DNA from: Candidatus Omnitrophota bacterium
GTDB lineage: Bacteria > Omnitrophota > Omnitrophia > Omnitrophales > Aquincolibacteriaceae
NCBI GenBank assembly: GCA_043821445.1
Contig: JBDRCT010000049.1
Coordinates: 3,872 to 67,871 of the forward strand
Length of the DNA: 64,000 bases
Direction of reading: 5' to 3'
In this document: positions 7,535 to 29,644 of the stretch, one piece after another
Position numbering within the stretch: the first letter of the stretch is position 1
How the letters are laid out: every line of letters starts with the position of its first letter
The notes under the pieces: model-generated
What the model saw: the letters and a program-made list of their open reading frames with translations, nothing else
What the model was told of the DNA's origin: nothing
Database searches by the model: none
Translations under genes and position numbers: made by a program

Positions 7535-7536
7535 CC

Positions 7537-7548
7537 GTCAATTTTGAC
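7537..7548. promoter_or_regulatory. perfect 12-bp palindrome GTCAATTTTGAC between rex and HupE-like gene (candidate operator)
   Basis: seen directly; function unassigned. Confidence 0.2.
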
Positions 7549-7571
7549 AGGGCAAGTAGGGGGAATAGAAA

Positions 7572-8225: not shown

Positions 8226-8242
8226 AAAAGAAACAGAAGTAT

Positions 8243-10094: not shown

Positions 10095-10095
10095 T

Positions 10096-11582: not shown

Positions 11583-11583
11583 G

Positions 11584-12497: not shown

Positions 12498-12499
12498 AC

Positions 12500-13681: not shown

Positions 13682-15326
13682 CGGAACGTTTTTTAGATCA
13701 GATCCTCTTTCGGCTTTTGTGGCATTCTTTATTGTCTTCTTTTCCCTCCTGACAATATTTTATTCCTTAGGTTTCATGCGAGGAAAGAAGGGACTGCTTT
13801 GGTATTATCTTTATCTTATTCTCACGCTTGCCGCTTCGCTCGGTGCCGTGTTCGCCAATAATCTTGTGTTATTCATGGTATTTTGGGGAGTTCTGGGGTT
13901 CCTCCTTTATCTTTTGATCGGATTTGGAGAAAAAGAACGCACCCCTGCGACCGCCAAGAAGACATTTATCATCATCGGTGGCACGGATGCCTTGATGCTT
14001 CTCGGTCTTGCGCTTGTCTGGCAGCTGACAGGTTCGTTCCAGATGGACAAAATGAGCATCGCCTTGAATTCCAAGCTTGCCGTTTGGGCTTACCTGTGCT
14101 TTGCGGCCGGCGCATTCGCCAAAGCAGGTGCCATGCCGTTCCATACCTGGATCCCGGACACCGCCGAAGACGCACCGACGCCGGTCACGGCTTTCTTGCC
14201 GGCATCGCTTGATAAACTTTTAGGGATCTATTTTCTTGCCCGGCTTTCGTTGAGCATGTTCCAGATGAACGGGCCGATGAACACCTTTTTAATGGCGGTC
14301 GGAGCTTTTACGATCGTGGCGGCCGTTATGATGGCGCTCGTCCAACATGATCTGAAGCGGTTGCTCGGGTATCATGCCGTGAGCCAGGTCGGCTACATGG
14401 TGCTGGGGATCGGCACGGGAAATCCTATCGGGATCGCCGGCGGATTGTTTCATATGCTGAATAATGCAGTCTATAAAACCTGTCTGTTCCTGACGGGGGG
14501 GGCCGTCGAAAAGAAAACAGGGACGACCGACCTGGACAAACTCGGCGGTTTGGCAAAGATCATGCCGGTGACTTTCATTACATTTTTGATCGCGGCATTC
14601 GCTATTTCCGGTGTTCCGCCATTTAACGGTTTTGCTTCCAAATGGCTCATTTATCAGGGAATTATCGAGACAGCGAACAAAACCCGATATTTATGGATCG
14701 TGTGGCTGGTCGCGGCTATGTTCGGAAGCGCGCTGACGCTGGCAAGCTTCATGAAGCTGGTCCATGCTATTTTTTTAGGTCAGACATCCAAGGAAATGAA
14801 CCTAGCGGAAAACCAGAAAAAAGAAACCGGATTTACCATGTGGGTCCCGGCCGTTATCCTCGCGTTTCTTTGCGTCCTTTTCGGGGTCTTTTTTTATCCG
14901 ATCCCTCTAAAAATGTTCATTATCCCAAGCCTTGGGATGAATATTGAAAACTTCGGGATGTGGGATGCGGGCCTGGCGACGATTTTGATCTTCGTTGGCA
15001 TTTTGGTCGGGTTTGTGATCTACCTTTTAGGCGCGGCCGTAAAACCCAGGGAAGCCGAGGTCTTTGTCGGCGGGGAGGACTTGAAAGATCATCCGGATAT
15101 GAGAATTTCCGGGACGGAGTTCTACCGGACCGTTGAGGACATGAAGATCTTGAAACCGGTTTATCAGCTGGCAAAGGAAAAGGCCTTTGATCCCTACGAG
15201 GTGGGGGCGAAGCTCACGTTCGGTTTCAGTAAATTTTTATCCTATCTCCACAACGGCATCCTGCCGACTTATTTGGTCTGGTGCCTTTTGGGGATGGGCA
15301 TCTTATTTTACATTTTTCTGAGGTAG
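13671..15326 (+). CDS. Mrp/NuoL-like antiporter subunit (MbhH-like)
   Basis: ~550 aa polytopic, NuoL/M/N-MnhA family sequence ('HAWLPDA'-type region 'PFHTWIPDTAED'). Confidence 0.7.
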   Translation: MDASGTFFRSDPLSAFVAFFIVFFSLLTIFYSLGFMRGKKGLLWYYLYLILTLAASLGAVFANNLVLFMVFWGVLGFLLYLLIGFGEKERTPATAKKTFIIIGGTDALMLLGLALVWQLTGSFQMDKMSIALNSKLAVWAYLCFAAGAFAKAGAMPFHTWIPDTAEDAPTPVTAFLPASLDKLLGIYFLARLSLSMFQMNGPMNTFLMAVGAFTIVAAVMMALVQHDLKRLLGYHAVSQVGYMVLGIGTGNPIGIAGGLFHMLNNAVYKTCLFLTGGAVEKKTGTTDLDKLGGLAKIMPVTFITFLIAAFAISGVPPFNGFASKWLIYQGIIETANKTRYLWIVWLVAAMFGSALTLASFMKLVHAIFLGQTSKEMNLAENQKKETGFTMWVPAVILAFLCVLFGVFFYPIPLKMFIIPSLGMNIENFGMWDAGLATILIFVGILVGFVIYLLGAAVKPREAEVFVGGEDLKDHPDMRISGTEFYRTVEDMKILKPVYQLAKEKAFDPYEVGAKLTFGFSKFLSYLHNGILPTYLVWCLLGMGILFYIFLR

Positions 15327-15330
15327 AGCC

Positions 15331-15882
15331 ATGCTTTCGTTATATCTGCTTTTGGCCTTGATGATTATCGGAGCGATCGTTGCCATTGAGCTCAAAGATA
15401 TGCTTTCTTCGGCGGTGGCCGTGGGTGCGGTCGGACTCATTCTTTCCATCACGTTCCTTATGTTAAAGGCCCCGGATGTGGCCATTACCCAGCTTGTCGT
15501 GGAAATTTTATGTTTGATCATTCTGATCCGGGCGACCTTGAAAAAGGATCTTCCGTTCTCGATCACCGGCAGATGGTATTTGAACACTTTGGTCACAGGC
15601 TGTTTTATCGTTTTGTTCCTGTCGATCGCGATGAAGGCCTGCGCCGATCTTCCGCCTTTTGGTTATCCCATTATGAAGGTGGCGGAAACTTATTTGCGGG
15701 AAGGACTGCCGAAGACGGGCGCCGCCAATATCGTCGCCGCCGTCATCCTGGATTACAGGGCTTATGACACCCTGGGAGAAGCGACCGTGCTGTTTACGGC
15801 GGTGATCGGTGTTTTGGCGATCGTGCGTCGTATCGGCAGAAAACGGGAAGATACCGTTATCACGGATGAAGATGAGTCATAA
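15331..15882 (+). CDS. Mrp antiporter MnhB-like subunit
   Basis: 'NIVAAVILDYRAYDTLGEATVLFTAVIGV' MnhB signature. Confidence 0.65.
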   Translation: MLSLYLLLALMIIGAIVAIELKDMLSSAVAVGAVGLILSITFLMLKAPDVAITQLVVEILCLIILIRATLKKDLPFSITGRWYLNTLVTGCFIVLFLSIAMKACADLPPFGYPIMKVAETYLREGLPKTGAANIVAAVILDYRAYDTLGEATVLFTAVIGVLAIVRRIGRKREDTVITDEDES

Positions 15883-15894
15883 AAGGAGGGCCCC

Positions 15895-16347
15895 ATGAGC
15901 CGCGAGCAACAAGAGGGCATGTCCGTCATCGTCAAGACGATCACACGTCTTACCGTAGGGCTCATCCTGCTTTATGGGATCTACATTCTCAGCCACGGGC
16001 ATGTGTCGCCCGGCGGCGGGGGGGCGGGCGGCGTCATCATCGCGCTTTCTTTTGTCCATTTGATGCTTGCCTACGGTAAGGAGACAGCTTTTAAAAAGAT
16101 CCCCAAGGCGGCTGTTTCGTTCTTTGAGGGCATGGGCGCCATCATCTTTTTGGCGATCGCTTTGTTCGGGTTTACCAGCGGATACTTTTTCTTGAATTTC
16201 ATCTCCAAAGGGGAACCCTTCCGTTTGTTCAGCGCCGGGATCATCCCTTTGTGCAATATCGCGATCAGCTTGAAAGTGGGCGCCGGTCTTTTCGCGATCT
16301 TTGTCGCCTTAGTATTGCTAAAATTCGAATCGGAGCACAAACAATGA
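15895..16347 (+). CDS. small polytopic membrane subunit of the Mbh/Mrp module
   Basis: 150 aa, 3-4 TM helices, operon position. Confidence 0.4.
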   Translation: MSREQQEGMSVIVKTITRLTVGLILLYGIYILSHGHVSPGGGGAGGVIIALSFVHLMLAYGKETAFKKIPKAAVSFFEGMGAIIFLAIALFGFTSGYFFLNFISKGEPFRLFSAGIIPLCNIAISLKVGAGLFAIFVALVLLKFESEHKQ

Positions 16348-16682
16348 CGGCCTACATCCTTTGTCTCATGTTGTTCTGCGTGGGCATTTACGGTGTGATA
16401 AGAAAACGTAATATCATCAAGATTATTATCGGGACGATCATCGCGGAATATGCCGTGAACTTGTTTTTTATTTTGGTGTGCTACCGCATGAAGGGACGCG
16501 CCCCCATTTTTTCGCCGGACCAGTCGATCACGAACATGGTCGACGCGCTCCCGCAGGCGCTTGTTCTAACCGCCATCGTCATCGGGCTTGCGACGACCGC
16601 CATGCTGGTGGCGATCGCCATGCGGATCTATGAAAAATACGGCACCTTCGACATTACCAAGATCAGGGAGTTAAGAGGATGA
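16344..16682 (+). CDS. MnhC/NuoK-like subunit
   Basis: 112 aa, 3 TM; ATGA start/stop overlap with upstream gene. Confidence 0.55.
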   Translation: MTAYILCLMLFCVGIYGVIRKRNIIKIIIGTIIAEYAVNLFFILVCYRMKGRAPIFSPDQSITNMVDALPQALVLTAIVIGLATTAMLVAIAMRIYEKYGTFDITKIRELRG

Positions 16683-18178
16683 GCGGTCTCGTGAACCTCC
16701 TACCGTTATTTGTGGTCGTGCCGCTGGGCGGGGCTTTTTTGACCACGATCATCGGCCGCCGGGTGAAGCGGCTGCCGGACCTTGTAGGCGTGATCGCGAC
16801 CTTTTGCCTGTTCTGTTTTTCCGTCTGGGCGGTCGCTATCGTCAAACAACACGGCGTCCTTGTTTATAGCGTCGGCGCGTGGAGACCGCCGGTGGGCATC
16901 ACCCTTGTTTTGGACGCTTTGACCTCGTTCATGCTGGTGACGGTGAACACGGTCGTCTTTCTGATCGCGGTCTATTCGGTCCGGTATATGGAGCACTTTA
17001 CTTCAAAATGGAAGTTCTTCACGCTTTTTCTGTTGTTGGTAGGGGGGATGAACGGCGTGATCATTACGGGCGATCTGTTCAATCTGTTCGTGTTTTTGGA
17101 GATCGCGGCGGTCGCCAGCTATGCTCTGGTGGCCTTTGGGACTGAAAAGTACGAACTTGAAGCGGCGTTCAAATACGGCGTGATGAGTTCCGTCAGCTCG
17201 CTTTTTATCCTTTTGGGGATCGCATTCCTCTACGCCTATACCTCCACCCTGAACATGGCGGACATGGCGGCGGTTCTGTCAAAGAAGGGCCCAAACGAGA
17301 TCATCCCGATGGTATCGATCTTATTTATCATGGGGTTCGGCCTGAAGGCGGCCCTCGTTCCTTTTCACGCGTGGCTTCCGGACGCGCATCCTTCGGCCCC
17401 GGCGCCTATCTCTGCGACGCTTTCCGGCGTTCTGATCAAATCCCTTGGAGCGTATACGATTTGCAGGATCTTTTTTAATGTGATCGGATTCAGCGAAGGG
17501 GTTTCTTATGTTTTATTGGTCCTGGGAACGCTTTCCATGGTCGGGGGGGTGTTTTTAGCCGTTGGGCAATGGGACTTCAAAAGGCTTCTTGCCTATCACT
17601 CCATCAGTCAGATGGGTTATGTCATCCTGGGCATCGGCTTGGGGACGCCGCTCGGGATCCTGGGGGGCCTTTTCCATCTTTTCAACCATTCCATATTTAA
17701 ATCACTGCTTTTCTTGAACTCAGGGGCCGTGGAGTATGCCACCGGCACCCGGGACCTTCAGCGCATGGGCGGTCTTTTTAAGAAAATGCCTGTGACCGGC
17801 ACCACCAATCTTATTGCATCGATGTCGATCGCCGGCATACCGCCTTTCAACGGTTTTTGGAGCAAGCTTCTGATCATCGTGGCGTGCGTGCAGGCCGGCC
17901 GGTACGGTTTTGCTTTTTGGGCCGTATTTGCCAGCATTTTGACCCTCGCTTCTTTTATGAAAGTGATGAAATATGTTTATTACGGGAAGCTGCCCAAGGC
18001 ATTGGCCGATACGAAAGAAGTTCCCGGCTTGATGAAATTCGCCATGGTGGTCTTAGCATTTATTTGCGTGATCGGCGGACTTTTGTTCCTTCCCGGCGTT
18101 GCCGGGACGTTCCTTCAACCGGCAACGGCCGTTCTTTTGAAAGGGGTCGGGTATGCCCATTTACCCTTCATTCCATGA
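16679..18178 (+). CDS. MnhD/NuoM-like antiporter subunit
   Basis: 499 aa; 'PFHAWLPDAHPSAP' conserved NuoM/MnhD motif. Confidence 0.7.
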   Translation: MSGLVNLLPLFVVVPLGGAFLTTIIGRRVKRLPDLVGVIATFCLFCFSVWAVAIVKQHGVLVYSVGAWRPPVGITLVLDALTSFMLVTVNTVVFLIAVYSVRYMEHFTSKWKFFTLFLLLVGGMNGVIITGDLFNLFVFLEIAAVASYALVAFGTEKYELEAAFKYGVMSSVSSLFILLGIAFLYAYTSTLNMADMAAVLSKKGPNEIIPMVSILFIMGFGLKAALVPFHAWLPDAHPSAPAPISATLSGVLIKSLGAYTICRIFFNVIGFSEGVSYVLLVLGTLSMVGGVFLAVGQWDFKRLLAYHSISQMGYVILGIGLGTPLGILGGLFHLFNHSIFKSLLFLNSGAVEYATGTRDLQRMGGLFKKMPVTGTTNLIASMSIAGIPPFNGFWSKLLIIVACVQAGRYGFAFWAVFASILTLASFMKVMKYVYYGKLPKALADTKEVPGLMKFAMVVLAFICVIGGLLFLPGVAGTFLQPATAVLLKGVGYAHLPFIP

Positions 18179-18687
18179 GACCAGATAAAATAAACAGCAG
18201 GATCATTCTTTTTATCGTTGCTTTTTTAACGTGGTGTGTTTTGAACTGGCCGCCGGACTGGCAGCACCTTTTGGTAGGTTTTTTTGTGGCGGCATTTGTC
18301 ACCTATATGATCGGCGATCTTTATGTTTCTGTGCCGAGTATTTTTAAACAACCCCAGCGGTATTGGTATTTTGCGGCCCATTATCTCCCGCTTTTCATCT
18401 TGGAGTGCATCAAGGCGAACATTGATGTTGCCTACCGTGTTTTGCATCCTCAATTACCGATCAAGCCGGGGATCGTACGGATCAAGACAAAACTCAAGAC
18501 CGACACGGGGCTGACATTTTTGGCCAATACGATCACCCTGACGCCCGGGACCATGTGTGTGGATATCGATCGGGATCGCGGCATTTTATATATCCATTGG
18601 ATTCATGTGGACGCGCAGGAAGCAGAGAAGGCGACACAACTGATCGCGGGAAAATTCGAAACGATACTGGCGAAAATATTTGGATAA
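18175..18687 (+). CDS. MnhE-like subunit
   Basis: 170 aa, N-terminal 2 TM, ATGA overlap with upstream gene. Confidence 0.5.
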   Translation: MRPDKINSRIILFIVAFLTWCVLNWPPDWQHLLVGFFVAAFVTYMIGDLYVSVPSIFKQPQRYWYFAAHYLPLFILECIKANIDVAYRVLHPQLPIKPGIVRIKTKLKTDTGLTFLANTITLTPGTMCVDIDRDRGILYIHWIHVDAQEAEKATQLIAGKFETILAKIFG

Positions 18688-18705
18688 GCAGGAAGGGAAA
18701 GGAAG

Positions 18706-19074
18706 ATGAAAATGCTCAGGTGGTTCATAGGCACGGTGGCTCTTGCCGGCACCGTGGCACTCATTATCATTTATCCGCTCCCGTTTTTGTTCTATCCCGA
18801 TCTTCCCCATGTTGGATTTGTCGGCAGGGCCCTCTATATCGTTATTTTAAGCTGCTTCCTTTGTTTTTACAGGATCGCACGGGGGCCTTCGGGCGCCGAC
18901 CGGATCGTCGCGGTCGATATTCTGGGGATCATGCTCGTGGGTTTATGCGCAGTGCTCACCATTGCAACACGTCGTTCCTGGTATATTGACATCGGCATTG
19001 CCTGGGCCCTGCAAAGCTTCATCAGCACACTCGCGCTTTCCAAGTATCTGGAAGGAAAGGATTTCGATGAATGA
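18706..19074 (+). CDS. MnhF-like subunit
   Basis: 122 aa, 3 TM, operon position. Confidence 0.45.
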   Translation: MKMLRWFIGTVALAGTVALIIIYPLPFLFYPDLPHVGFVGRALYIVILSCFLCFYRIARGPSGADRIVAVDILGIMLVGLCAVLTIATRRSWYIDIGIAWALQSFISTLALSKYLEGKDFDE

Positions 19075-19402
19075 GACCCTTGGCTTAGTATTGATCGGCA
19101 TCGGGTTGGCCTTTGACCTTTTTGGGTGTCTAGGGCTTATCCGTCTTCCCGACGTTTATAACCGTCTGCAGGCGGCGACGAAATGCGTCACCGTAGGAAC
19201 TTGCAGCATTCTTTTTGGGACTTTTCTGATCATGGGATTTACCGCCGCAGGGCTGAAATCGATCTTGTGCATATGGTTTCTGGTCTTGGCTTCCCCCGTG
19301 GCAGCCCATGCCTTGGCGAGAGGCGCCCATCGTGCCGGTATTAAACTTTGGGAAAAAAGCGTGGTGGACCAGTATGCCGAGGACGGGGAAGGAAAAAAAT
19401 AA
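19067..19402 (+). CDS. MnhG-like subunit
   Basis: 'LGLVLIGIGLAFDLFGCLGLIRLPDVYNRLQAATK' MnhG signature. Confidence 0.6.
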   Translation: MNETLGLVLIGIGLAFDLFGCLGLIRLPDVYNRLQAATKCVTVGTCSILFGTFLIMGFTAAGLKSILCIWFLVLASPVAAHALARGAHRAGIKLWEKSVVDQYAEDGEGKK

Positions 19403-19405
19403 ATC

Positions 19406-20023
19406 ATGAGATTTCCATTACCGAAACTCCGGGAAGTGGTCGAGGCGGTGAAGGCGCTTATCGTAGGGCCTTACACCTCGAAGTTTCCTAAGGAACCACA
19501 TGTGCCGCATCCTAATTTCCGCGGCCAGCCCAAGTATAACGAGCAAAAATGCGTGGGCTGTCTAGCGTGTGTCGAGGTTTGTCCCGTCCAGGCACTCGAT
19601 TATAAAGATGACACCAGCGATCCTAAAGCGGCTAAAAGAACCATGATCCATTACACGGACACCTGCATTTTCTGCAGTCAGTGTGAGGCGGCTTGCATTG
19701 CGGACCATCAGGGGATCAAGGCCTCCACAGATTGGGAACTCTCCTTTTTCGACCGGAAAGCGGCATTCGAAACGATCGAGAAAGAATTGCAGCTTTGCGA
19801 GATTTGCGGAGTGACGGTCGCTTGCAAGGATCATTTGAAATGGATTGCCGAAAAACTCGGAGAATTATCCTATTCCAGCCCCACACTTTATCAATCACGT
19901 CTTCAGGACCTCGGGGTCATCGATGAGAATCTCAAGTCCGCATTGAAAGACAACGGCCGTTCCGATCGTGTCAAGATCCTCTGCGCGCCGTGCCGCCGGA
20001 AGACAACGCTCACGACCGAATAA
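19406..20023 (+). CDS. 2x[4Fe-4S] ferredoxin subunit (NuoI/MbhN-like)
   Basis: 'CVGCLACVEVCP' and 'CIFCSQCEAAC' motifs. Confidence 0.6.
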   Translation: MRFPLPKLREVVEAVKALIVGPYTSKFPKEPHVPHPNFRGQPKYNEQKCVGCLACVEVCPVQALDYKDDTSDPKAAKRTMIHYTDTCIFCSQCEAACIADHQGIKASTDWELSFFDRKAAFETIEKELQLCEICGVTVACKDHLKWIAEKLGELSYSSPTLYQSRLQDLGVIDENLKSALKDNGRSDRVKILCAPCRRKTTLTTE

Positions 20024-20057
20024 ACCAATATTGCTTTTTCTTGGGATCCCGGCCAAT

Positions 20058-20519
20058 ATGGAAGATCTTTTAATCCCCATTCTCAAAGGAAAGACCGTGA
20101 TCGTCGGCATCGGGAACCCGCTTCGCGGGGACGATGGTGTTGGGCCGTACCTTGTGGAAATTCTCCAGGGTAGGGTCAATGCTGTTTGTATCGATGCCGG
20201 GACGGCGCCCGAAAGTTACATCGGAAAGATTTTGAAGGAGTTCCCGGATACGGTACTGATCGTGGATGCCGTACACCTAGGGCTTGAGGCGGGCGCGTGT
20301 CAGGTCCTGGAGGGGGACGAGATCTTGAAAAGCGGTCTTACCACCCATGACCTTTCGCCGCGGATGTTCATGGACCATCTGAGGCAGGGAAGCAGGGCCC
20401 GGATCTACATGCTGGGGGTTCAGCCCCAAAGGGTCCTCTTCGGGGACGCTATGTCCGGATCGGTAAAAAAAACAACGGAACAACTGGCCGCAGCAATTAC
20501 GGAGGTGCTGGGTGCATGA
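20058..20519 (+). CDS. hycI: hydrogenase maturation endopeptidase (HycI/HyaD family)
   Basis: 'VIVGIGNPLRGDDGVGPYLVEIL' signature. Confidence 0.75.
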   Translation: MEDLLIPILKGKTVIVGIGNPLRGDDGVGPYLVEILQGRVNAVCIDAGTAPESYIGKILKEFPDTVLIVDAVHLGLEAGACQVLEGDEILKSGLTTHDLSPRMFMDHLRQGSRARIYMLGVQPQRVLFGDAMSGSVKKTTEQLAAAITEVLGA

Positions 20520-20754
20520 AACACATTTAATCGAACCGATCATCAAGGGGATCTCGGAGCACGCGAAAAAAGAGGGCGCTCGTTCCGTGTCCAAGGTCCA
20601 TATCAAGGTCGGCCTGTTGACCGGCGTCAAGGAAGAATCTTTCAGAGAAACCTTCGCGGTGCTTGCTAAGGGAACGATGCTTGAGAACGCCGAGATAGAA
20701 CTGACATTCTTTCCGGGCACCATCATCCAGATTCTTTCCTTCGCTATCGAGTAG
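20512..20754 (+). CDS. HypA-like N-terminal (Ni-binding MHE) domain, lacking the C-terminal Zn-finger
   Basis: 'MHETHLIEPIIKGISEHAKKEGARSVSKVHIKVGLLTGV' resembles HypA N-terminus; no CxxC...CxxC; 80 aa. Confidence 0.45.
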   Translation: MHETHLIEPIIKGISEHAKKEGARSVSKVHIKVGLLTGVKEESFRETFAVLAKGTMLENAEIELTFFPGTIIQILSFAIE

Positions 20755-20759: not shown

Positions 20760-22067
20760 ATGTGCTATGCCATCCCCGGGAAGGTGAAGGAACTCAAGGG
20801 AAACGTTGCGGTCCTGGATTATTTCGGAGAGCTCCGGAGAGCACATTATGAGATGACGGATCTTCGGGTGGATGAATACGTTTATGCGCAGGGTGGTTAC
20901 GTCATCAATAAAGTCCCGCTCCGCGAGGCCGAAGAGATCCTATCAGCCTGGAAGACCATGTTCTTTGAACTCCAGGAAGTCGATCTGCGCCTGTCGCGCG
21001 CCGGGATCGAGAAGATAAGCGCGGACGCGGCGATCAAGCGGATCCTGGACAAGGCCATGGAAGGAAAGCCGCCGGCCAGGGACGAGCTGCTCTATCTGCT
21101 CAAGTGCCGCGATCGATCCACGCTTGACCTGGTCTTCAAATCCGCCAATTTCCTCCGTCAGAAATATCTTAAGAACGCCTGCTGCGTTCACGGCATTCTC
21201 GAGATCTCAAACCATTGTAGGGAAAATTGCCGTTATTGCGGGATTTCGACACACCACAAGGCCCTCACACGTTACCGCATGACCCCGGACGAGATCATGG
21301 CCGTCGCCTGTGAGGCGGTTGAAAAATATGGGTTTAAGGCGCTCGTCCTTCAAAGTGGCGAAGATCCCGGATATTCGATCGATGAATTCGCAAGGATCAT
21401 CAGGATGATCAAAGAAAAAACGCCGTGTCTTATTTTCATAAGTTTCGGCGAGATCGGTATTCCGGGTCTCCGGAAACTTCACGATGCCGGCGCGCGCGGG
21501 CTCTTGATGCGCTTCGAAACCTCGAATCCCAAACTTTACGCGGAATCCCATCCGGGCCGTTCCCTGGAAACAAGGCTCGAGCACCTCCGTAAGGCCTACG
21601 AAATGGGCTATTTGATCGTGACGGGAGGGCTGATCGGCCTGCCTGACCAGACCCTTGCGGATATCGTGGATGATATTTTTCTTGCAAAAGAACTTCACGC
21701 CGAGATGTACAGTTTTGGCCCGTTCCTTCCGCACCCCCAAACGCCTTTGGGGAAGGTCCTGCCTGTGCATGAAATTGAAATGTTGAAAGTGATTGCTGTC
21801 GCGAGACTTTTGGATCCGAAAGAAGCGAGGATCCTTGTCACCACGGCTTTCGAGACCTTGAGTCCGGACGCCCGGCGCAAAGGCCTTCTTGCCGGTGCTA
21901 ATTCTGTGATGCTTAATATCACCCCCGTAGAATATCGCGAGCGTTATGCGATCTACCCGAACCGGGTTTATGCCCACGAAACGGTCCGTAAACAGATCGA
22001 TGAGACGCTTGTCTTGTTGAAAGAACTCGGGCGCGCGCCGACGGACCTTGGCGCAAAGGTCCATTAA
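20760..22067 (+). CDS. fusion protein: N-terminal HypC/HupF-like domain + HydE/BioB-like radical SAM domain
   Basis: starts 'MCYAIPGKVKEL...VDEYVYAQGGYVI' (canonical HypC MC-x-AIP N-terminus) then 'ISNHCRENCRYCGIS' CxxxCxxC radical-SAM motif and BioB/HydE-like TIM barrel; single uninterrupted frame, 435 aa. Confidence 0.7.
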   Translation: MCYAIPGKVKELKGNVAVLDYFGELRRAHYEMTDLRVDEYVYAQGGYVINKVPLREAEEILSAWKTMFFELQEVDLRLSRAGIEKISADAAIKRILDKAMEGKPPARDELLYLLKCRDRSTLDLVFKSANFLRQKYLKNACCVHGILEISNHCRENCRYCGISTHHKALTRYRMTPDEIMAVACEAVEKYGFKALVLQSGEDPGYSIDEFARIIRMIKEKTPCLIFISFGEIGIPGLRKLHDAGARGLLMRFETSNPKLYAESHPGRSLETRLEHLRKAYEMGYLIVTGGLIGLPDQTLADIVDDIFLAKELHAEMYSFGPFLPHPQTPLGKVLPVHEIEMLKVIAVARLLDPKEARILVTTAFETLSPDARRKGLLAGANSVMLNITPVEYRERYAIYPNRVYAHETVRKQIDETLVLLKELGRAPTDLGAKVH

Positions 22068-23567
22068 ATGAAAACGGCGATCGCAAAAAATACAGATACC
22101 TGGCTCTTAGGCCGCATCAAAAAAGATGAGATCACAAAATATCTTGATCAGGGCCGTGATTTCATTGATGACGATGCGATCTGGAAAAAGATCGAAGCGG
22201 CCCGGGAGCCTGATGCATCCACCGTGCGCGCCATTCTCGCGCGTTCACTCGCCATCCAGACGCTTACACCGGAAGAGCTCGCGACTCTGATTCATGTGAA
22301 GGATCCCGGCATGCTTCGCGAAATGCAAGAAGCCGCCCTTGCGATCAAGAAAAAAGTCTATGACAACCGGATCGTTACTTTCGCGCCGCTTTATATGGGA
22401 AATTATTGCGTCAATAACTGCGCCTATTGCGGATTCAAGCATGAAAATCTCAGCACGAAGCGCCGCGTCCTTTCACAGGACGAGATCCGTAGGGAAACTG
22501 AAAGCCTGACGGGAAAGATCGGCCACAAGCGCATTATCGCGGTCTACGGAGAGCATCCGCTGACCGGGATCGATTATATCCTTGAAAGCATGAAGACGAT
22601 CTACGACGTGAGGGTACCGACCAAGCACGGTTTCGGCAATATCCGTCGTATCAATGTGAATGCCGCGCCGATGTCGATCGAAGAGCTCGTTCGTCTCAGG
22701 GACGGCGGCCTTGGGACTTATCAGGTGTTTCAGGAAACCTACCATCATGAGACCTACGCAAAACTTCATCCGAAAGGGACACTCAAATCCGATTATCGCT
22801 GGCGGCTCTATGCCATGCATCGCGCGATGGAAGCGGGGATCAATGACGTGGGGATCGGGGTCCTGTTCGGGCTTTATGATTGGCGTTTTGAAGTGATGGC
22901 GCTTCTTTATCACGCGATCCACCTTGAGGCCAAGATGGGGATCGGTCCCCATACGGTATCATTCCCGCGTATGGAGCCGGCGCTCAACTCTGAATACGCC
23001 GAACATTCCCCCTATAAAGTATCCGACGAGGATTTCAAGAAGATCATCCTGCTCATCCGTCTCGCCATTCCTTACACGGGCATGATCATTACGGCGCGGG
23101 AGACTGCCCAGATGCGGCGTGATGCGATCGGTCTCGGGATCACACAGACCGATGCTTCCACTAAGATCGGGATCGGAAGTTACAGCGAAGAGGGAAAGGG
23201 CCAGGAATCCGAACGTCAGCAGTTCCTGTTGGGCGACACCAGAAGTTTGGATGAATTAGTCCGGGATTTCGCGGCAATGGGGCACATTACTTCCTTTTGC
23301 ACCGCAGGATATCGTTGCGGCAGGACGGGCAAATGTATTATGGACCTCTTGCGCGGCGGCCAGGAAGGGAAGTTCTGCAAACTGAACGCTGTGCTGACCT
23401 TTCAGGAATGGCTGGATGATTTCGCCACTCCCGCGACGCGTGAAGTAGGGCTCCGGGTGCTGGAAAAAGAACTTGAAGAGATCAAGGTAAGAAATCCCCA
23501 GGGGTTCCCGGTCTTTTATCAATTTCTTGAACGTATTCGCAAAGGGGAGAGAGATCTGTTCCTTTAG
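22068..23567 (+). CDS. HydG/ThiH-family radical SAM enzyme
   Basis: 'GNYCVNNCAYCGF' CxxxCxxC; C-terminal extra cysteines 'FCTAGYRCGRTGKC...FC' as in HydG-type; 499 aa. Confidence 0.65.
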   Translation: MKTAIAKNTDTWLLGRIKKDEITKYLDQGRDFIDDDAIWKKIEAAREPDASTVRAILARSLAIQTLTPEELATLIHVKDPGMLREMQEAALAIKKKVYDNRIVTFAPLYMGNYCVNNCAYCGFKHENLSTKRRVLSQDEIRRETESLTGKIGHKRIIAVYGEHPLTGIDYILESMKTIYDVRVPTKHGFGNIRRINVNAAPMSIEELVRLRDGGLGTYQVFQETYHHETYAKLHPKGTLKSDYRWRLYAMHRAMEAGINDVGIGVLFGLYDWRFEVMALLYHAIHLEAKMGIGPHTVSFPRMEPALNSEYAEHSPYKVSDEDFKKIILLIRLAIPYTGMIITARETAQMRRDAIGLGITQTDASTKIGIGSYSEEGKGQESERQQFLLGDTRSLDELVRDFAAMGHITSFCTAGYRCGRTGKCIMDLLRGGQEGKFCKLNAVLTFQEWLDDFATPATREVGLRVLEKELEEIKVRNPQGFPVFYQFLERIRKGERDLFL

Positions 23568-23645: not shown

Positions 23646-24011
23646 AAGTGCTCAACTGGGTCAATCAAACTATGAAAACGGGCGCCTGTGCAAGGATTGT
23701 CTTGAGCGCCGGATCCGGGTGGCGGGTGCCGAAAGTGGCTATGGTGAATGGGGTGATCCGAGGCATTTTTTTAAAAACAGAAAGTTCTCTAAAAGCGGTA
23801 CCTAGTATTTGGTGCGCCCAGCCCCCGGAAAATTGCCAACGCTACGTGGTTTTTAATCAAATATTATGGACTGCGTTCTCGGTGCAGTATTTCTGTATTC
23901 TGAGCTTGATATCTTTAAAAAATATGATAGAACATAGTGCCGTTAAGTCGTCGAAAGCCTGTTTTGAGAACCCGCCCAGTCCCGGGACAGTGCAATCCAA
24001 TGAGGTGGATC

Positions 24012-24395
24012 ATGGATAAAAAAGAGTTCTATGCAAAGTCGGAAAAGATCATTAACGAGACCTTCGAGACTATCAAAAAGTACGCCAAGGTTATGGCGGA
24101 AAAGACGGGAGAGGCGGCGCATGTCACGCGTCTTCTGATCCAGAAAGCGACCCTGGAGCATCAGATGGCCAAGGCGTTCTCCCAACTGGGTAGCCAGGTC
24201 TATCAAACAACAGTGAGGCAAGGGGGAAAGCTCGAGCTTGACACTCCCGAGATGTTAAAAGTTCTTGGGGAGATCAAGAAACTCGACACCGAACTCGGCC
24301 AGGTCGAAGCGGTGCTTGAAAAAGAGCGCAAGGTCAAGGCCGTCAAGGAAGCCAAGCTGAAAGCCGTCCGGAAGCGCACGGGCAAGTCCTCATAA
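24012..24395 (+). CDS. hypothetical coiled-coil protein
   Basis: 127 aa, K/E-rich heptad-like sequence; no recognisable family. Confidence 0.4.
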   Translation: MDKKEFYAKSEKIINETFETIKKYAKVMAEKTGEAAHVTRLLIQKATLEHQMAKAFSQLGSQVYQTTVRQGGKLELDTPEMLKVLGEIKKLDTELGQVEAVLEKERKVKAVKEAKLKAVRKRTGKSS

Positions 24396-24474
24396 AGATT
24401 GACGCACCTAGCTTTAATTAGAATTGAACGGCAGCTAGGGCAACTCTTGGAATAAAAAGTAGATTTTGATTTGA

Positions 24475-24556
24475 GCGCGGGTGGTGAAACTGGCAGACAC
24501 GCCAGCTTGAGGGGCTGGTTCCGCAAGGAGTGCAGGTTCAAGTCCTGTCCCGCGCA
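24475..24556 (+). tRNA. tRNA-Leu (anticodon GAG)
   Basis: GCGCGGGTGGTGAAACTGGCAGACACGCCAGCTTGAGGGGCTGG...long variable arm...GGTTCAAGTCC...CCCGCGCA; anticodon loop TT-GAG-GG. Confidence 0.8.
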
Positions 24557-24591
24557 TTTTTTTTGATGGTTCCATAACTTCGGAGCAGTGA

Positions 24592-25965
24592 ATGACGATT
24601 CCATCCCATATTTTCAGAGAATACGATATCCGCGGTACTGCGGGAAAAGAACTCACCGAAGAGGTCGCGCTTGCGATCGGGAGGTCTTTTGGAACTCTGC
24701 TTGTCCGCGAGGGAAAACACACCCTCGCGATCGGTCACGACCATCGCTGGAGCGCGGAATTCCTCTACCGGGGTCTTTCGAAAGGACTCCAGAGTTGCGG
24801 CCTTACGGTGATCGAGATCGGTCTTGTCCCGACGCCGCTTGTTTATTTCTATGTCATACACAACAAACTCGATGCCGGCATTTCTCTTTCCGGTTCCCAC
24901 AATCCTCCGGATGAGAACGGTTTCAAGTTCCATCATTCCGGACGTTCCTTTTACGGAAAAGATATTCAGGGTCTCCGCGAGTTGATCGAGAAGAATGATT
25001 TTGTGACCAGCCAAGGCAAGGTTGAGCGCCCGGACCATGACGCGCTTGTGAAGGCCTACCAGGATTTTATTTTCAGCGGATTCAAATTCACAAAAAAACT
25101 CAAGGTGATCATGGATACAGGGCACGGGATGGCGGCCGTGACGGCCCCCGCCCTTATTCGCCGCTTTGGGCACGACGTTACCGTGCTTTACGAGAACCTC
25201 GATCCTAAAATGCCGGACCATCAGGCTGACCCTTCAGTGCTCGCCAATATGAAAGCGCTCCAGCAAAAGGTCGTGGACGCCAGGGCGGATATCGGGATCG
25301 CATTCGACGGGGACGCGGACCGCATCGGCGTGGTGGATGAGAAAGGGCAGATCATTTTCGGGGATAAACTTCTTCTTCTCTACGCTCGCGAGATCCTCGC
25401 CCGCAAACCCGGATCGATCATCATCGGGGACGTGAAAAGCTCAAAACAGATCTATGACGATATCGCCAAACGCGGCGGGAAACCCCTAATGTGGAAAACC
25501 GGGCATTCCCTTATCAAGGCCAAGATGAAGGAAACCCACGCCGAGATGGCCGGGGAAATGAGCGGGCACATGTTCTTCAATGACAGGTGGCTCGGTTTCG
25601 ACGACGCGGTCTACGCGGCATGCCGTATTCTTGAGATCCTCGACAAGGCGAATGCGCCGCTTTCCTCGCTTTTAGCGGACATACCACAACTTGTTTCGAC
25701 GCCGGAGATCCGTTTTAACTGCCCCGAAGAGATCAAGTTCAAAGTCGTGGCCCAGGCGGTCGCGGACCTGAAAAAGAAATATGAAGTGGTTGACATCGAC
25801 GGTGCAAGAGTCCAGTTCCCGGACGGATGGGGGCTTGTGCGCGCTTCCAATACCCAGCCGGTGCTTGTGATGCGCTTTGAGGCCGCGACGCAGAAGCGCC
25901 TTGAGGAGATCCGCGCGATCGTTGAAAACGAGATCACCGCACTCATGCGTGAGATGAGCCGATGA
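24592..25965 (+). CDS. manB: phosphomannomutase/phosphoglucomutase
   Basis: 'FREYDIRGTAGKELTEE' N-terminus, 'SGSHNPPDENGFKF' phosphoserine loop, 'DGDADR' Mg site. Confidence 0.85.
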   Translation: MTIPSHIFREYDIRGTAGKELTEEVALAIGRSFGTLLVREGKHTLAIGHDHRWSAEFLYRGLSKGLQSCGLTVIEIGLVPTPLVYFYVIHNKLDAGISLSGSHNPPDENGFKFHHSGRSFYGKDIQGLRELIEKNDFVTSQGKVERPDHDALVKAYQDFIFSGFKFTKKLKVIMDTGHGMAAVTAPALIRRFGHDVTVLYENLDPKMPDHQADPSVLANMKALQQKVVDARADIGIAFDGDADRIGVVDEKGQIIFGDKLLLLYAREILARKPGSIIIGDVKSSKQIYDDIAKRGGKPLMWKTGHSLIKAKMKETHAEMAGEMSGHMFFNDRWLGFDDAVYAACRILEILDKANAPLSSLLADIPQLVSTPEIRFNCPEEIKFKVVAQAVADLKKKYEVVDIDGARVQFPDGWGLVRASNTQPVLVMRFEAATQKRLEEIRAIVENEITALMREMSR

Positions 25966-27026
25966 ACTGGGCGGTCATCATGGCCGGCGGGAGCGGCACG
26001 CGCTTCTGGCCGGAAAGCCGTAAACATCGCGCCAAACAGTTCCTCAACCTCTTCGGCCCTAAGACGCTGCTTGAACAAACCTTCGACCGCGTCAAAAAAG
26101 TGATATCTCCGTCCCGCATTCTTGTCTTCACCGCTTTGGACAAAGCCGCCTCAACGGCGAGATTGCTCCCTATTCCGCGCGGGCACGTGATCGGGGAGCC
26201 GGCCGGACGCAACACGGCGCCGTGCGCGGCGTGGGCCGCATCGCTCGTCTTGCGAAAAGACCCCTCGGCGGTCCTGGGTATTTTCCCCGCGGACCATTTC
26301 ATCAAGGATGAGACCACTTTCGCGAAAGTTCTCCGGATCGCCTACGGCCAAGCGGATGAATCAGGGATGCCTGTAACGCTTGGGATCAAACCCGATCAGC
26401 CTCACACGGGATACGGTTATCTCGAAATGGCCGGAAAGAAGACCGCGGTTCGCGGCGTGCCTGTCTTTTTTCTCAAATACTTTCACGAGAAGCCGGGGTT
26501 CGCACAGGCACGGGCGTATTTCCGCTCGAAAAAATTTCTTTGGAATGCCGGGATCTTTATTTGGCGCGCGGATTGCTTGCTCGAAACCACACGCCGTGAG
26601 CTTCCTTCTGTTTTTAAAACGGTTGTAAAACTTGCAGCCGGAGGACTTTCCGCGGCAACCGTTAAAAAGCTCTTCGACAAAGTCCCGAGTGTCTCGATCG
26701 ATCATGGGCTGATGGAAAAGCTTTCCGGCAGCATTCTGACGATTCCGGTCGCGATGGGATGGAATGATGTCGGAAGCTGGGCGACGCTCAGGGGTCTCTT
26801 GCCGGTCGACTGCAGCGGGAATCTCTCCATGGGTAACAATATCCTAGTGGAGAGTTCCGGTAACGTTGTGAAAGGAGCGGGACGCCTCATCGCCACCGTG
26901 GGCCTCAAAGATCATGTGGTGGTCGACACCGGGGATGCGGTCCTCGTCTGTCCGTTGAGCGAAACGGAATCCATCCGTAAGATCGTTCTTGAACTTCAAA
27001 AAAGGAATATGCACCGTTTTCTCTAA
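25962..27026 (+). CDS. manC: mannose-1-phosphate guanylyltransferase
   Basis: 'AVIMAGGSGTRFWPESR' NTP-transferase G-loop; 354 aa; translationally coupled to manB. Confidence 0.8.
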   Translation: MNWAVIMAGGSGTRFWPESRKHRAKQFLNLFGPKTLLEQTFDRVKKVISPSRILVFTALDKAASTARLLPIPRGHVIGEPAGRNTAPCAAWAASLVLRKDPSAVLGIFPADHFIKDETTFAKVLRIAYGQADESGMPVTLGIKPDQPHTGYGYLEMAGKKTAVRGVPVFFLKYFHEKPGFAQARAYFRSKKFLWNAGIFIWRADCLLETTRRELPSVFKTVVKLAAGGLSAATVKKLFDKVPSVSIDHGLMEKLSGSILTIPVAMGWNDVGSWATLRGLLPVDCSGNLSMGNNILVESSGNVVKGAGRLIATVGLKDHVVVDTGDAVLVCPLSETESIRKIVLELQKRNMHRFL

Positions 27027-27119
27027 TACCGCGTTGCTATTGATTTTAAGGGGTCGCGGTATTGTACCGTTAACCCGTAAAAATAAATGAAAAACGGTAT
27101 TAACCATAGGAGATTTACC

Positions 27120-27350
27120 ATGAAAATGTCTCACAAGTTCTTAGCGTTGTTTCTTTTAGCGTTGGCGCTTTCAGGTTGTTCGTCATGTCCGTTCAAGAAA
27201 AAAGCGGTGGAAACGCCGGCGCCTGAAACCGTTCAAGCCGTAGCGGCGCCGGTCGTGCCCGCAGTGGTGCAGGAATCCGCCCCCACCATGCCCGCGGAGC
27301 CTGCCGAAGAGTCTGTTCCAGCCGCGACGAGAAGATACGTAAATAAATAA
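27120..27350 (+). CDS. small lipoprotein with Pro/Ala-rich tail
   Basis: 'MKMSHKFLALFLLALALSGCSSC' lipobox. Confidence 0.4.
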   Translation: MKMSHKFLALFLLALALSGCSSCPFKKKAVETPAPETVQAVAAPVVPAVVQESAPTMPAEPAEESVPAATRRYVNK

Positions 27351-27356
27351 ATATTC

Positions 27357-27398
27357 GGGGAGCGGGTGCCTGTAAAGAGCCTGCTCCCCGGACTTTTT
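27357..27398 (+). terminator. rho-independent terminator (GGGGAGC...GCTCCCC + T-run)
   Basis: hairpin followed by GGACTTTTTG. Confidence 0.45.
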
Positions 27399-27543
27399 GC
27401 GCCTGATTTTCTATTAAGAAAAAGATCGGGAAATCAGTGCTGTCCAAATCGCCATTCAGAAAAGAAAACGGAAGATTTGGGCGCGGCGCTTCCGACTTGC
27501 CGCGCAGGTCTTTCGTTAATAGGTTTCTCCCGGAGGTTTTACT

Positions 27544-28374
27544 GTGACCTTGTGGCAAGCGGTGGTGTTAGGGATCGTCCAGGGACTTACGGAGTTCCTT
27601 CCGGTCTCCAGTTCCGGCCATTTGGTGCTTTTTCAGAATCTCTTCGGGATGAAAGAGCCGATGCTGGCGTTCGATATCGCCCTGCACGGCGGAACGCTTC
27701 TTGCGATCGCGACCTTCTTTTACAAGGACATCCTCGATATCCTGAAGGATTTCACTGGGAGCGTTCAAAGAGCTATTTCCAAAAAGCCCGCTTCCGCTGC
27801 AAGTGTCCAACCACCCCATCGGGGACTCTGGGTCTGCATTCTGATCACGCTCGTTCCGACCGGGATCTTGGCCGTTTGCTTCAAGCATCTTTTTGAGACT
27901 GCTTTTGCGAATCTCGCCTTTGTGGCCGCGGCGTGGTTCGTGATGGGCCTTCTTCTGATCCTGAGCGAACGGTTCCAAAAGGGGCAAAGGGATCTTTCTT
28001 TGATCCACTACGGCGACGCGTTTTGGATCGGCTTGGCCCAGGGGATCGCTCTTTTGCCGGGGGTCTCACGCTCGGGAAGCACGATCCTTGCGGGCATGTT
28101 TCTGGGGATCAAAAAAGAGGATGCCGCAAAATTCTCGTTCCTGATCTTTATCCCTGCGATGGTGGGAGCGATCGTGATGGACCTCAAAGAAGGGATCCCA
28201 TACTTTTCATCGAACGCAGCGGTCGTTCTGGCCGGATTTCTCGCGGCCTCGGTCGCGGGATATCTTGTCATCCGCTGGCTTATGGGTCTCATCCGGAAGG
28301 GCCGCTTTTTCATCTTTGGCTACTACTGCATTGCCGTGAGTCTCTTTGCGTGGGTCGTTGCGATCCTTTCCTGA
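27544..28374 (+). CDS. uppP: undecaprenyl-diphosphate phosphatase
   Basis: 'GIVQGLTEFLPVSSSGHL' and 'GVSRSGSTI' BacA motifs; GTG start. Confidence 0.85.
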   Translation: MTLWQAVVLGIVQGLTEFLPVSSSGHLVLFQNLFGMKEPMLAFDIALHGGTLLAIATFFYKDILDILKDFTGSVQRAISKKPASAASVQPPHRGLWVCILITLVPTGILAVCFKHLFETAFANLAFVAAAWFVMGLLLILSERFQKGQRDLSLIHYGDAFWIGLAQGIALLPGVSRSGSTILAGMFLGIKKEDAAKFSFLIFIPAMVGAIVMDLKEGIPYFSSNAAVVLAGFLAASVAGYLVIRWLMGLIRKGRFFIFGYYCIAVSLFAWVVAILS

Positions 28375-28378
28375 AGAC

Positions 28379-29644
28379 ATGAAAACCGTTCGTTGCGTCC
28401 TCCAACGGGGTAAGGAACGACCCGTCAAGAACCGTCATCCCTGGATATTCTCCGGCGCGATCGACCGGATCGACGAGGGGTTCGAGCCCGGCGATCTTGT
28501 CCGCGTTCTCTCCGACAAAGACGAATTCCTCGGGGTGGGTTATCTCAATCCTGAGTCCCAGATCGTGGTGCGCATGCTGGCGTTCGAGGATATCACGATC
28601 GATGAGTCGTTCTTTGATGAAAAGATCGGATACGCACTTGAGATGCGCAAGCGGTTCCTGCCTTTGTCCTCCCATTTTGCTTCAAAAGGGTCGACAAAGG
28701 CAGGCACTGATTTCCTTGAAAAAAAAATTAATGAAAATCATGTGCTGCCGGCTGAGACGAATGCCTACAGGCTTGTCCATTCCGAAGGGGACTTTCTTCC
28801 GGGGCTCGTTGTGGACGTCTACGGGGACTTTCTGGTCGCGGAGTTCAATACGGCCGGGATCGACGCATGGAAGCCGGCGATCGTGAAATGTCTTCAAAAA
28901 TATTTCCCCGCGCATTCCATCTTCGAACGGAGCGATTCAGATCTCCGAAAATGGGAGGGCCTCAAGCGTTCCGTGGGCGTGCTCACAGGGAAGGAGCTTC
29001 CGGAAGCGATCGAGGTCCTGGAGAACGGACTTCTCTTCGGTGTCGATATCAAAGGCGGGCAGAAGACGGGATTTTTTCTCGACCAGCGGGAAAGCCGCCA
29101 GTACGTCCGGGGAATAAGCGCTGGCAAGCGAGTGCTCAATTGTTTTGCCTATACGGGTGGATTCTCTGTTTACGCGGCCAAAGGCGGCGCGAGGGAAGTC
29201 GTGTCCGTGGAATCGTCCGAATCCGCGGTTGCCATGGGGCGAAAGAATTTCGAGAGGAATCAGCTCGGCGCGGACGCGGGCGTTTGGGCCCAGCAGGATG
29301 TTTTTGATTACTTGCGCACGACAAAAAAAGAATTCGATATGATCATCCTCGATCCGCCGGCCTTTTGTAAAAGTAAAAGCCAGGTCCAGCATGCCGCGCG
29401 GGGTTATAAGGATATCAACCTGCAGGCCCTGAGGCAGCTCCCGAGAGGCGGTCTGCTTTTCACATTCTCGTGTTCGTCTTACATCACGCCGGACCTTTTT
29501 CAAAAGATCGTCTTCGGTGCCGCTTCTGACGCGAAACGCGACGTCAGGATCCTCAAGAAAACCTCCCACGCGTTCGACCATCCGATCAATATCTATCACC
29601 CCGAAGGCGAATACCTTAAGGGACTTCTCTGCGAAGTCGTTTGA
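28379..29644 (+). CDS. class I SAM-dependent rRNA methyltransferase, RlmI/RlmK-like (PUA + MTase)
   Basis: N-terminal PUA-like region, 'VLNCFAYTGGFSVYAA' SAM motif I, 'ILDPPAF' motif IV. Confidence 0.7.
   Translation: MKTVRCVLQRGKERPVKNRHPWIFSGAIDRIDEGFEPGDLVRVLSDKDEFLGVGYLNPESQIVVRMLAFEDITIDESFFDEKIGYALEMRKRFLPLSSHFASKGSTKAGTDFLEKKINENHVLPAETNAYRLVHSEGDFLPGLVVDVYGDFLVAEFNTAGIDAWKPAIVKCLQKYFPAHSIFERSDSDLRKWEGLKRSVGVLTGKELPEAIEVLENGLLFGVDIKGGQKTGFFLDQRESRQYVRGISAGKRVLNCFAYTGGFSVYAAKGGAREVVSVESSESAVAMGRKNFERNQLGADAGVWAQQDVFDYLRTTKKEFDMIILDPPAFCKSKSQVQHAARGYKDINLQALRQLPRGGLLFTFSCSSYITPDLFQKIVFGAASDAKRDVRILKKTSHAFDHPINIYHPEGEYLKGLLCEVV

Follow-up and report, generated by a model that had tools for sequence, protein, structure and literature searches.

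HydG beside a HypC–HydE-like fusion and a group 4 [NiFe] hydrogenase operon in an Omnitrophota bacterium: a possible radical route to the [NiFe] site

We analysed a 64,000-nucleotide (nt) stretch of the 68,246-bp contig JBDRCT010000049.1 from a Candidatus Omnitrophota bacterium, hereafter the window. An open reading frame (ORF) at 22068–23567 encodes HydG, a radical S-adenosylmethionine (SAM) tyrosine lyase known from [FeFe] hydrogenase maturation. It lies at the end of a group 4 [NiFe] hydrogenase operon, directly behind a gene in which HypC is fused to a paralog of HydE (HydE′). A preliminary description of this DNA had noticed a HydG-like enzyme next to a [NiFe] hydrogenase and had put forward, as one hypothesis, that the diatomic ligands of the [NiFe] site are made by a HydG/HydE-type radical route and handed to the fused HypC, the alternative being [FeFe] partners encoded elsewhere. 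The observation was correct, since the identity of HydG, the [NiFe] operon and the absence of the hyp and hyd genes in question from the window were all recovered. The hypothesis is plausible but unproven, and it is sharper now, with a specific HydE paralog, a conserved gene module and a datable replacement of the locus. We assign a probability of about 0.5 to the reading that HydG feeds HydE′ and that HydE′ loads the fused HypC for [NiFe] maturation.

The Fe(CN)2CO unit of all [NiFe] hydrogenases is generally attributed to HypCDEF, with cyanide derived from carbamoyl phosphate. If the proposed reading is true, the HypC-fused HydE paralog, present in 348 species genomes and usually followed by HydG, would be the earliest hint from genomes that CO and CN made from tyrosine by [FeFe]-type enzymes can enter [NiFe] enzymes. 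The result matters for annotation even if the radical route is wrong, because matches to HydG and to HypC-fused 'HydE' are unreliable markers of [FeFe] hydrogenases in surveys of metagenome-assembled genomes (MAGs).

HydG, the fusion and the [NiFe] operon

HydG makes CO and CN− by cleaving tyrosine and assembles an Fe(CO)x(CN) unit at its C-terminal cluster. The product of 22068–23567 (499 amino acids, ATG start, intact ORF, MFH1801054.1; forward strand, as are all window features below) scored 463.2 bits against the HydG profile TIGR03955 of NCBIfam (cutoff, 312.15), covering profile positions 8–468 of 470. Its score against the ThiH profile TIGR02351 was 255 bits, below the cutoff of 380. 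The alignment with T. italicus HydG (TiHydG, 4WCX) ran end-to-end, with 454 bits and residues 28–498 placed on 18–479. Like the HydG proteins of 4WCX and 4RTB, the window protein has the TIM barrel, the CX3CX2C radical SAM motif (here CVNNCAYC) and the C-terminal domain that is without counterpart in ThiH. A conserved histidine in 'ALLYHAIHLE' aligned with that in 'AMLYHANHLE' of TiHydG, which we take to be His265, the ligand of the dangler iron, and we equate the window histidine with it on that basis. Ligation of the dangler Fe of HydG by a histidine is described in a structural review. We identified the ORF as a full-length HydG, and with all its catalytic motifs intact it is predicted to be catalytically competent; the cautious 'HydG-like' of the preliminary description can be dropped.

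The auxiliary-cluster motif departed from the usual HydG form. The motif CX2CX22C has been described as 'strictly conserved' in HydG. In its place, residues ~413–445 had C-x2-G-x2-C-x5-C-x13-C and read CTAGYRCGRTGKCIM...FCKLNA. The first and third cysteines were kept, the second was replaced by glycine with a new cysteine three residues on, at +6 (CTAGYRC), and another new cysteine stood at +12. All 23 copies, in the examined loci, of the HydG class to which the window protein belongs (class 1, see below) had the Gly-variant motif. Of the 120 closest relatives, 119 had it too, and it was shared by orthologs in an [FeFe] setting. In the wider HydG family it was the minority form, and the +6 cysteine nearly always accompanied the glycine. 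We considered the variant as a mark of a [NiFe]-specialised HydG and rejected this, because HydG orthologs in an [FeFe] context carry the same motif. As judged by its distribution, the variant is a lineage trait and not a sign of new function; it is probably a re-wired, predicted cluster site. The shifted second cysteine may interest those who work on HydG cluster chemistry. The C-terminal comparison of HydG with ThiH raised in the preliminary description thus gave a HydG-type domain with a variant cysteine motif.

The HypC::HydE′ fusion (20760..22067; 435 amino acids, MFH1801053.1) consists of a HypC module at residues 1–~75 and a HydE-paralog radical SAM domain at ~93–428. Its stop codon at 22067 abuts the HydG start at 22068, and by this arrangement HydG is translationally coupled to the fusion. 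The HypC module, which had also been recognised in the preliminary description, scored 46.8 bits against PF01455 (cutoff, 28.5) and 34 bits against TIGR00074 (cutoff, 48). Like HypC, HybG and HupF, it matched PF01455 and the HypC of T. kodakarensis and has the essential N-terminal cysteine, which is invariant across the fusions as Cys2 of MCYAIPG; HypA and HycI are encoded in the same operon. It differs from canonical HypC in being joined to a radical SAM enzyme, in the absence of HypD/E/F/B from the window and the examined loci, and in the replacement of the conserved HypC histidine (His51 in E. coli; aligned through T. kodakarensis HypC) by Gln44, which is invariant in the fusions.

HydE′ is most similar to HydE (TIGR03956; T. 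maritima HydE, TmHydE, 3IIZ and 7O1O). It gave 228 bits to TmHydE and has the SAM-cluster motif and the GPF-PHP-TPL motifs. Against the HydE profile, with a cutoff of 254.6 bits, the window fusion (236.0 bits) and the fusion of locus L009 (227.6 bits) both remained below the threshold, whereas the unfused HydEs of L009 (359.6 bits) and L037 (330.7 bits), which coexist with fusions at the same loci, passed it. At L009 the gene series is hydF(partial)-hydG-hydE, and at L037 an [FeFe] cassette precedes HydG-HydE. Because canonical HydE coexists with HydE′ where [FeFe] enzymes are present, we assign HydE′ as a distinct paralog of HydE, and not HydE itself.

We aligned 26 fusions against eight canonical HydEs. 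Forty-six positions were invariant in both groups, including Met224 and Met291 of TmHydE. These two methionines have been linked to the handling of the Fe(CO)2CN species (structural review). Apart from its HypC-fused N-terminus and its score below the cutoff, HydE′ differs from HydE at positions that are conserved in the canonical HydEs and invariantly changed in the fusions: Arg54 is replaced by His144, Arg73 by Ser, Arg155 by Gly (with an Arg one position earlier) and the auxiliary-cluster Cys319 by Gln. The fusions have also gained an invariant Cys142-x-His144, mostly as Cys-Cys-x-His at residues 141–144, at the site of canonical HydE Arg54. We regard Cys142/His144 and Gln44 as candidates for ligating an iron fragment.

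Motifs and domains identify the adjacent hydrogenase as a real group 4 [NiFe] enzyme, and domain content supports the group 4 label given in the preliminary description. Its 13 Mbh/Mrp-type structural genes lie at 10641..20023. They encode the small subunit (11557–12027; NuoB-like, PF01058) and the large subunit (12500–13681), which has the motifs RICGICSTSHP and DPCYCC and matches PF00346 (Complex1_49kDa) and PF00374 (NiFeSe_Hases). The other subunits are NuoH-like, NuoC-like, MbhH, MbhD/E, MnhB, NuoK-like, MrpD, MnhE, MrpF, MnhG and a 2x[4Fe-4S] protein; PF00361 is among the matches of the membrane subunits, and a NuoI-like subunit is in the set. The subgroup label 4g for such an enzyme comes from the Omnitrophota literature only. 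Next come a HycI-type large-subunit endopeptidase (19968..20519), whose true start probably lies 3′ of the listed GTG, and a short HypA of 80 amino acids (20512..20754), in which the N-terminal MHE Ni-binding half is present and the Zn-finger domain is missing. The 80-amino-acid length of HypA is kept in many related loci, including L001 and L002. The adjacency claimed earlier was thus borne out, with an operon that contains a CxxC-motif large subunit and Mrp/Mbh membrane subunits and that ends at HydG.

Pfam annotation and tblastn with HydA, HydF and HydE seeds found none of hypB, hypD, hypE, hypF, an [FeFe] hydrogenase, hydF or an intact canonical hydE in the 64-kb window, in agreement with the statement that hypDEF, hydA and hydF are absent from it. 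All other sizeable ORFs of the window were annotated by Pfam as housekeeping genes or as a giant HEAT-repeat protein.

Origin of the locus and spread of the fusion–HydG module

The closest relatives of the window HydG formed ~55 clusters at 76–92% identity. We opened the genomic contexts of three close relatives (L083/L084, L085 and L086; HydG 83–91% identical) and of two at 66–69% identity (L087 and L088). The three close contexts contained HydABC-type [FeFe] hydrogenase(s), a TM1266-like gene, HydF, HydG and HydE in this order, and L087 and L088 had the same [FeFe] order plus an ammonia-lyase gene. In L083–L085, HydE was followed by genes for a 127-amino-acid protein, PGM/PMM, ManC, BacA and a PUA-methyltransferase. 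The same gene series follows HydG in the window at 72–80% amino-acid identity, with NifU at 86%. Relatives whose HydG is 87–91% identical share both the [FeFe]-HydF-HydG-HydE order and these downstream genes. On gene order, the window HydG therefore corresponds by positional orthology to the HydG of genuine [FeFe] maturation clusters and is, by descent, an ordinary Omnitrophota HydG.

The flanks of HydG differ between the two settings. Upstream, the relatives have the [FeFe] genes and HydF, whereas the window has the Mbh operon, HycI, HypA and HypC::HydE′; downstream, the relatives have HydE, whereas in the window a 370-nt non-coding stretch follows. Within this stretch, a scar of the canonical hydE 3′ end, corresponding to the last ~36 codons and lying outside any ORF, was detected at 23674–23781 (+) by tblastn and translation. 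Residues 313–348 of the L083 HydE matched it with 64% identity (E 9e-11); the window translation is NGRLCKDCLERRIRVAGAESGYGEWGDPRHFF and the L083 sequence is NARQCKNCLEQRIRAAGAKIGYGEWGDAPHFM. The scar was not present in L003 and L004. The gene order of the relatives and the scar in the window indicate that, at this locus, the canonical hydE was deleted, hydF and the [FeFe] genes were replaced, and hydG was kept.

The relatives in a [NiFe] context comprise the window and L003, which are of Mbh type, and L004, which is of group 3 type. Among these three, the ratio of non-synonymous to synonymous substitution rates (dN/dS) of HydG was 0.145, 0.109 and 0.125, at dS of 0.48–0.81. The neighbouring genes gave 0.055–0.19, and the fusion gave 0.095. 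Thus, hydG is under purifying selection and is not decaying. The window amounts to a natural experiment: hydG persists under selection beside the fusion after the loss of the [FeFe] genes, hydF and hydE.

Two observations concern the [FeFe] loci themselves. L083, L086, L087 and L088 hold two tandem [FeFe] hydrogenases, one of them with a ~1050-amino-acid NuoE-NuoF-GltD-like fusion subunit. In two Omnitrophota [FeFe] loci, an aspartate ammonia-lyase-like gene lies between the TM1266-like gene and HydF. A role of ammonia-lyases in H-cluster synthesis has recently been proposed (PMC11736057), and the position of this gene near HydF is in line with such a role.

We scanned for the fusion in one genome per GTDB species and found relatives in 348 species genomes from several phyla, the hosts including Omnitrophota, Margulisiibacteriota/Saganbacteria, Brevinematales/Spirochaetota, Auribacterota, WOR-3 and Caldatribacterium. 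The best 80 loci from the scan, together with L001 and L002, were examined (82 loci, each up to ~21 kb). Across the 80 loci, in Mbh-type and group-3-type operons alike, the genes 5′ of the fusion were nearly always those of a [NiFe] enzyme and HycI, in most cases together with a short HypA. We distinguished three recurrent architectures. In type I, to which the window belongs, an Mbh/Mrp operon leads into a HycI-HypA-fusion-(Rex)-HydG tail. Type II has the same tail behind a group-3-like cytoplasmic enzyme that consists of Fer4_22, FNR-like, small and large subunits. Type III is type II with an [FeFe] cassette, containing a histidine kinase, NuoF or GltD, HydA, NuoE and a response regulator, between the fusion and HydG.

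Sixty-five loci with at least 3.5 kb of sequence 3′ of the fusion were informative. HydG was within 10 kb of the fusion in 46 of them, and 40 of these 46 had no [FeFe] gene within that reach. The gap between fusion and HydG was often −7 to +6 nt in loci other than the window. Two classes of HydG stood beside the fusion: class 1, that of the window, and class 2, of ~460 amino acids with the canonical CX2CX22C motif. The class 1 arrangement was kept in at least 20 divergent species at 57–88% HydG identity. L035, on a closed 1.28-Mb chromosome, has HypA-fusion-HydG with no hydrogenase in the 10 kb available upstream. Signatures of HypD/E/F were found neither in the first 82 related loci (L001–L082) nor in the window, and HypB was found in none of these 82 loci.

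A 642-amino-acid protein, 'unk642' (L023 16881–18809, with homologs in ~10 loci), is encoded 3′ of HydG-NfnAB-(GltB-like) in group-3-type loci. We considered it as a hidden hydrogenase or scaffold and set this aside: it has no Pfam or NCBIfam match and no cysteine motifs, looks helical and adjoins an HD-domain protein. It may have a regulatory role. In L021, a 79-amino-acid stretch (12760–12996, +) lies directly after a class 2 HydG that itself follows the fusion. It shares 48% identity with the cluster-binding C-terminal region of HydF and may represent either a piece of HydF or a mini-scaffold.

A radical route to the [NiFe] site and its alternatives

The mechanism that we propose as the most economical begins with HydG, which would make an organometallic Fe-carbonyl-cyanide synthon. 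The HydE′ domain of the fusion would take this synthon and process it by radical chemistry, as HydE does, and would then load the product on Cys2 of the attached HypC module rather than pass it to HydF. The large subunit of the [NiFe] enzyme would receive the Fe(CO)(CN) unit from the HypC module; Ni insertion by HypA and trimming of the subunit's C-terminus by HycI would follow. In this lineage, the [FeFe] hydrogenase and HydF were swapped for an Mbh/Mrp [NiFe] enzyme with a putative Ni permease, HycI, HypA and HypC::HydE′. The operon has the look of a complete [NiFe] set: it provides for uptake and insertion of Ni, for proteolysis and for a HypC carrier, and it has the HydE-like enzyme and HydG where HypD/E/F would be expected. 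HypD/E/F may still contribute, for instance the second cyanide. We infer what HydE′ acts on, that its product passes to HypC and that HydG takes part in [NiFe] cofactor synthesis. The only known substrate of HydE is the Fe(Cys)(CO)2(CN) synthon of HydG (structural review).

The conservation of the module behind [NiFe] operons, the coupling of the two genes, the deletion of hydE and the selection on hydG suggest, but do not prove, a radical route. This part of the earlier proposal has gained ground, and it is offset by the orthology of HydG to an [FeFe] maturase. The most far-reaching version, that HydG and the HypC-fused HydE paralog form a complete radical-SAM route to Fe(CO)(CN)2 from tyrosine that replaces HypD/E/F in Omnitrophota and several other anaerobic phyla, appears unlikely to us. 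In that case, [FeFe]- and [NiFe]-type maturation chemistries could be exchanged for one another at the stage of the iron-ligand synthon.

Several points weigh against the feeding of the fused HypC by HydG. The HydG product has two CO and one CN, whereas the [NiFe] site has one CO and two CN, which leaves a gap in stoichiometry. Nothing in the HydG sequence is [NiFe]-specific, because the same ortholog group, with the same cysteine variant, also serves canonical [FeFe] clusters. The fusion occurred without HydG within 10 kb in 19 of the 65 informative loci, including three from Caldatribacterium. An [FeFe] cassette lay between fusion and HydG in 8–10 of 80 loci (HydA in eight, plus two truncated loci), and in L015, L016, L037 and L071 a canonical HydE followed HydG in such loci. 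Since some fusion loci contain [FeFe] cassettes and canonical HydE/HydF, the adjacency could simply persist from a hydrogen-metabolism island shared by both systems. Other Omnitrophota have been reported to have both 4g [NiFe] and A3 [FeFe] enzymes. Finally, in the portion of the supplementary tables of Seymour et al. (2023) available to us, genome 231 has KEGG orthology (KO) entries for hypA/C/D/E/F (including K04654–K04656) together with NiFe and Mrp. The same portion lists Hyp and HydEFG TIGRFAMs for genome 104 and HydEFG only for genome 190; none of the three genomes could be linked to the fusion from it.

The main alternative, less probable than the proposed reading, is that HydG is an ordinary [FeFe] maturase whose [FeFe] hydrogenase, HydF and another HydE are encoded on other contigs. 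HydG would then merely sit in a Rex-regulated hydrogen-metabolism island, and the fusion would mature the [NiFe] enzyme without HydG, or not at all. Such an explanation fits the HydG score above the equivalog cutoff, its position as ortholog of the HydG in [FeFe]-HydF-HydG-HydE clusters, and the [FeFe] cassettes with canonical HydE/HydF in type III loci and L009. It also fits the literature on Omnitrophota that have 4g as well as A3 enzymes, the joint Hyp and HydEFG TIGRFAM sets of genome 104 and the hypA/C/D/E/F KOs in a genome with NiFe and Mrp, both from the partial tables of Seymour et al. (2023). However, the relatives keep hydF, hydG and hydE contiguous, whereas the 64-kb window lacks hydF and has a mere scar of hydE; the explanation therefore needs hydE and hydF to have been duplicated or relocated, with hydG left behind. 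It also leaves aside that HydG abuts the stop codon of the fusion, that 40 of the 46 HydG-bearing fusion loci lack an [FeFe] gene within 10 kb, and that the trio in L035 stands without a hydrogenase in the available 10 kb upstream. Furthermore, Williams et al. (2021) reported one hydrogenase type per Omnitrophota MAG and two genera with the 4g enzyme only. The supplements of that study and of the Caldatribacterium isolation paper hold no maturation-gene data.

A more limited role for the radical enzymes, in which HydG and HydE′ supply only CO (or CO and one CN) to a HypCDEF pathway encoded elsewhere, seems improbable. It would be an anaerobic counterpart of HypX, not a substitute for HypDEF, and would speak to the source of CO in anaerobic [NiFe] maturation, which is generally regarded as unresolved. 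Cys2 is kept in the HypC module, as this role would lead one to expect; however, the conserved HypC histidine is an invariant glutamine in the fusions, and hypD never adjoins the fused HypC in the first 82 loci, although hypC and hypD are commonly adjacent elsewhere. The hypD/E/F KOs listed for at least one NiFe and Mrp Omnitrophota genome, in the partial tables cited above, agree with a HypCDEF pathway. It is far less probable still that HydG no longer functions and survives, not yet decayed, from an [FeFe] system that was lost recently. The hydE deletion is not ancient, because the scar is still recognisable, and this would suit a relic. Against it, the ORF is intact with complete catalytic motifs, its dN/dS of 0.11–0.15 is like that of neighbouring functional genes, and the arrangement with class 1 HydG has persisted in at least 20 divergent species; this reading is already disfavoured.

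Under the proposed feeding of HypC by HydG and HydE′, the module can be likened to HypX in function only, inasmuch as diatomic ligands would be supplied to HypC-bound iron. The families are unrelated, and HypX uses formyl-tetrahydrofolate under aerobic conditions, whereas the route proposed here would use radical SAM tyrosine cleavage under anaerobic conditions. HypX has been described as the aerobic CO route for [NiFe] hydrogenases (PMC6802093). A precedent for the recruitment of a HydE/BioB-like radical SAM enzyme to the cofactor of a non-[FeFe] hydrogenase is HcgA/HmdB of the [Fe]-hydrogenase Hmd. The fusion differs from HmdB, with 79.6 bits against TIGR03957, far under the cutoff of 320.9, no Hmd/hcg context and a different lineage. 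Our searches of the open-access literature yielded neither a report of a HypC-HydE fusion nor one of an action of HydG on [NiFe] enzymes, and the context of the window HydG is unusual and apparently undescribed.

Other genes of the window

The head of the operon (6842..10662) encodes Rex, a putative permease, Fer4_22, FNR-like and Fer4_11 proteins. The Rex-like redox regulator (6842–7534) is followed by 'unk7572' (7572–8225), a membrane protein without a Pfam match. The motifs GPDHY and GPCEPLIP are invariant in its family, and most homologs also have a His-rich loop (HxHxHxDGxxHxH); in L004 and L006, a homolog is placed between the fusion and HydG. These features suggest that unk7572 is probably a Ni/Co permease, and we list it as a putative Ni permease. 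Fer4_22 and FNR-like genes for sulfhydrogenase beta/gamma-like subunits follow at 8243–10094, and the gene of the Fer4_11 protein lies 3′ of them. Such Fer4_22 and FNR-like subunits normally accompany group 3 [NiFe] enzymes, and their presence at the Mbh operon suggests a hybrid NAD(P)H-linked membrane hydrogenase. Within 4541–10662 (+), NfnAB-like genes (a DHODB Fe-S/NAD subunit and a GltD-like subunit) precede Rex and the Mbh operon.

Downstream of HydG, a hairpin with a T-run was noticed by eye; it was not called in the terminator scan, and we claim no terminator there. The anchor genes shared with the [FeFe] loci occupy 23937..29644 and encode the small protein (core, 24012–24392), PGM/PMM, ManC, BacA and the PUA-methyltransferase. 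Further downstream, 35223–52631 (+) is one ORF of 5802 amino acids with HEAT/Armadillo repeats and, inside them, adenylate-kinase-like and guanylate-kinase-like domains. Very large ORFs have been noted for Omnitrophota in the taxon descriptions of the supplement of Seymour et al. (2023).

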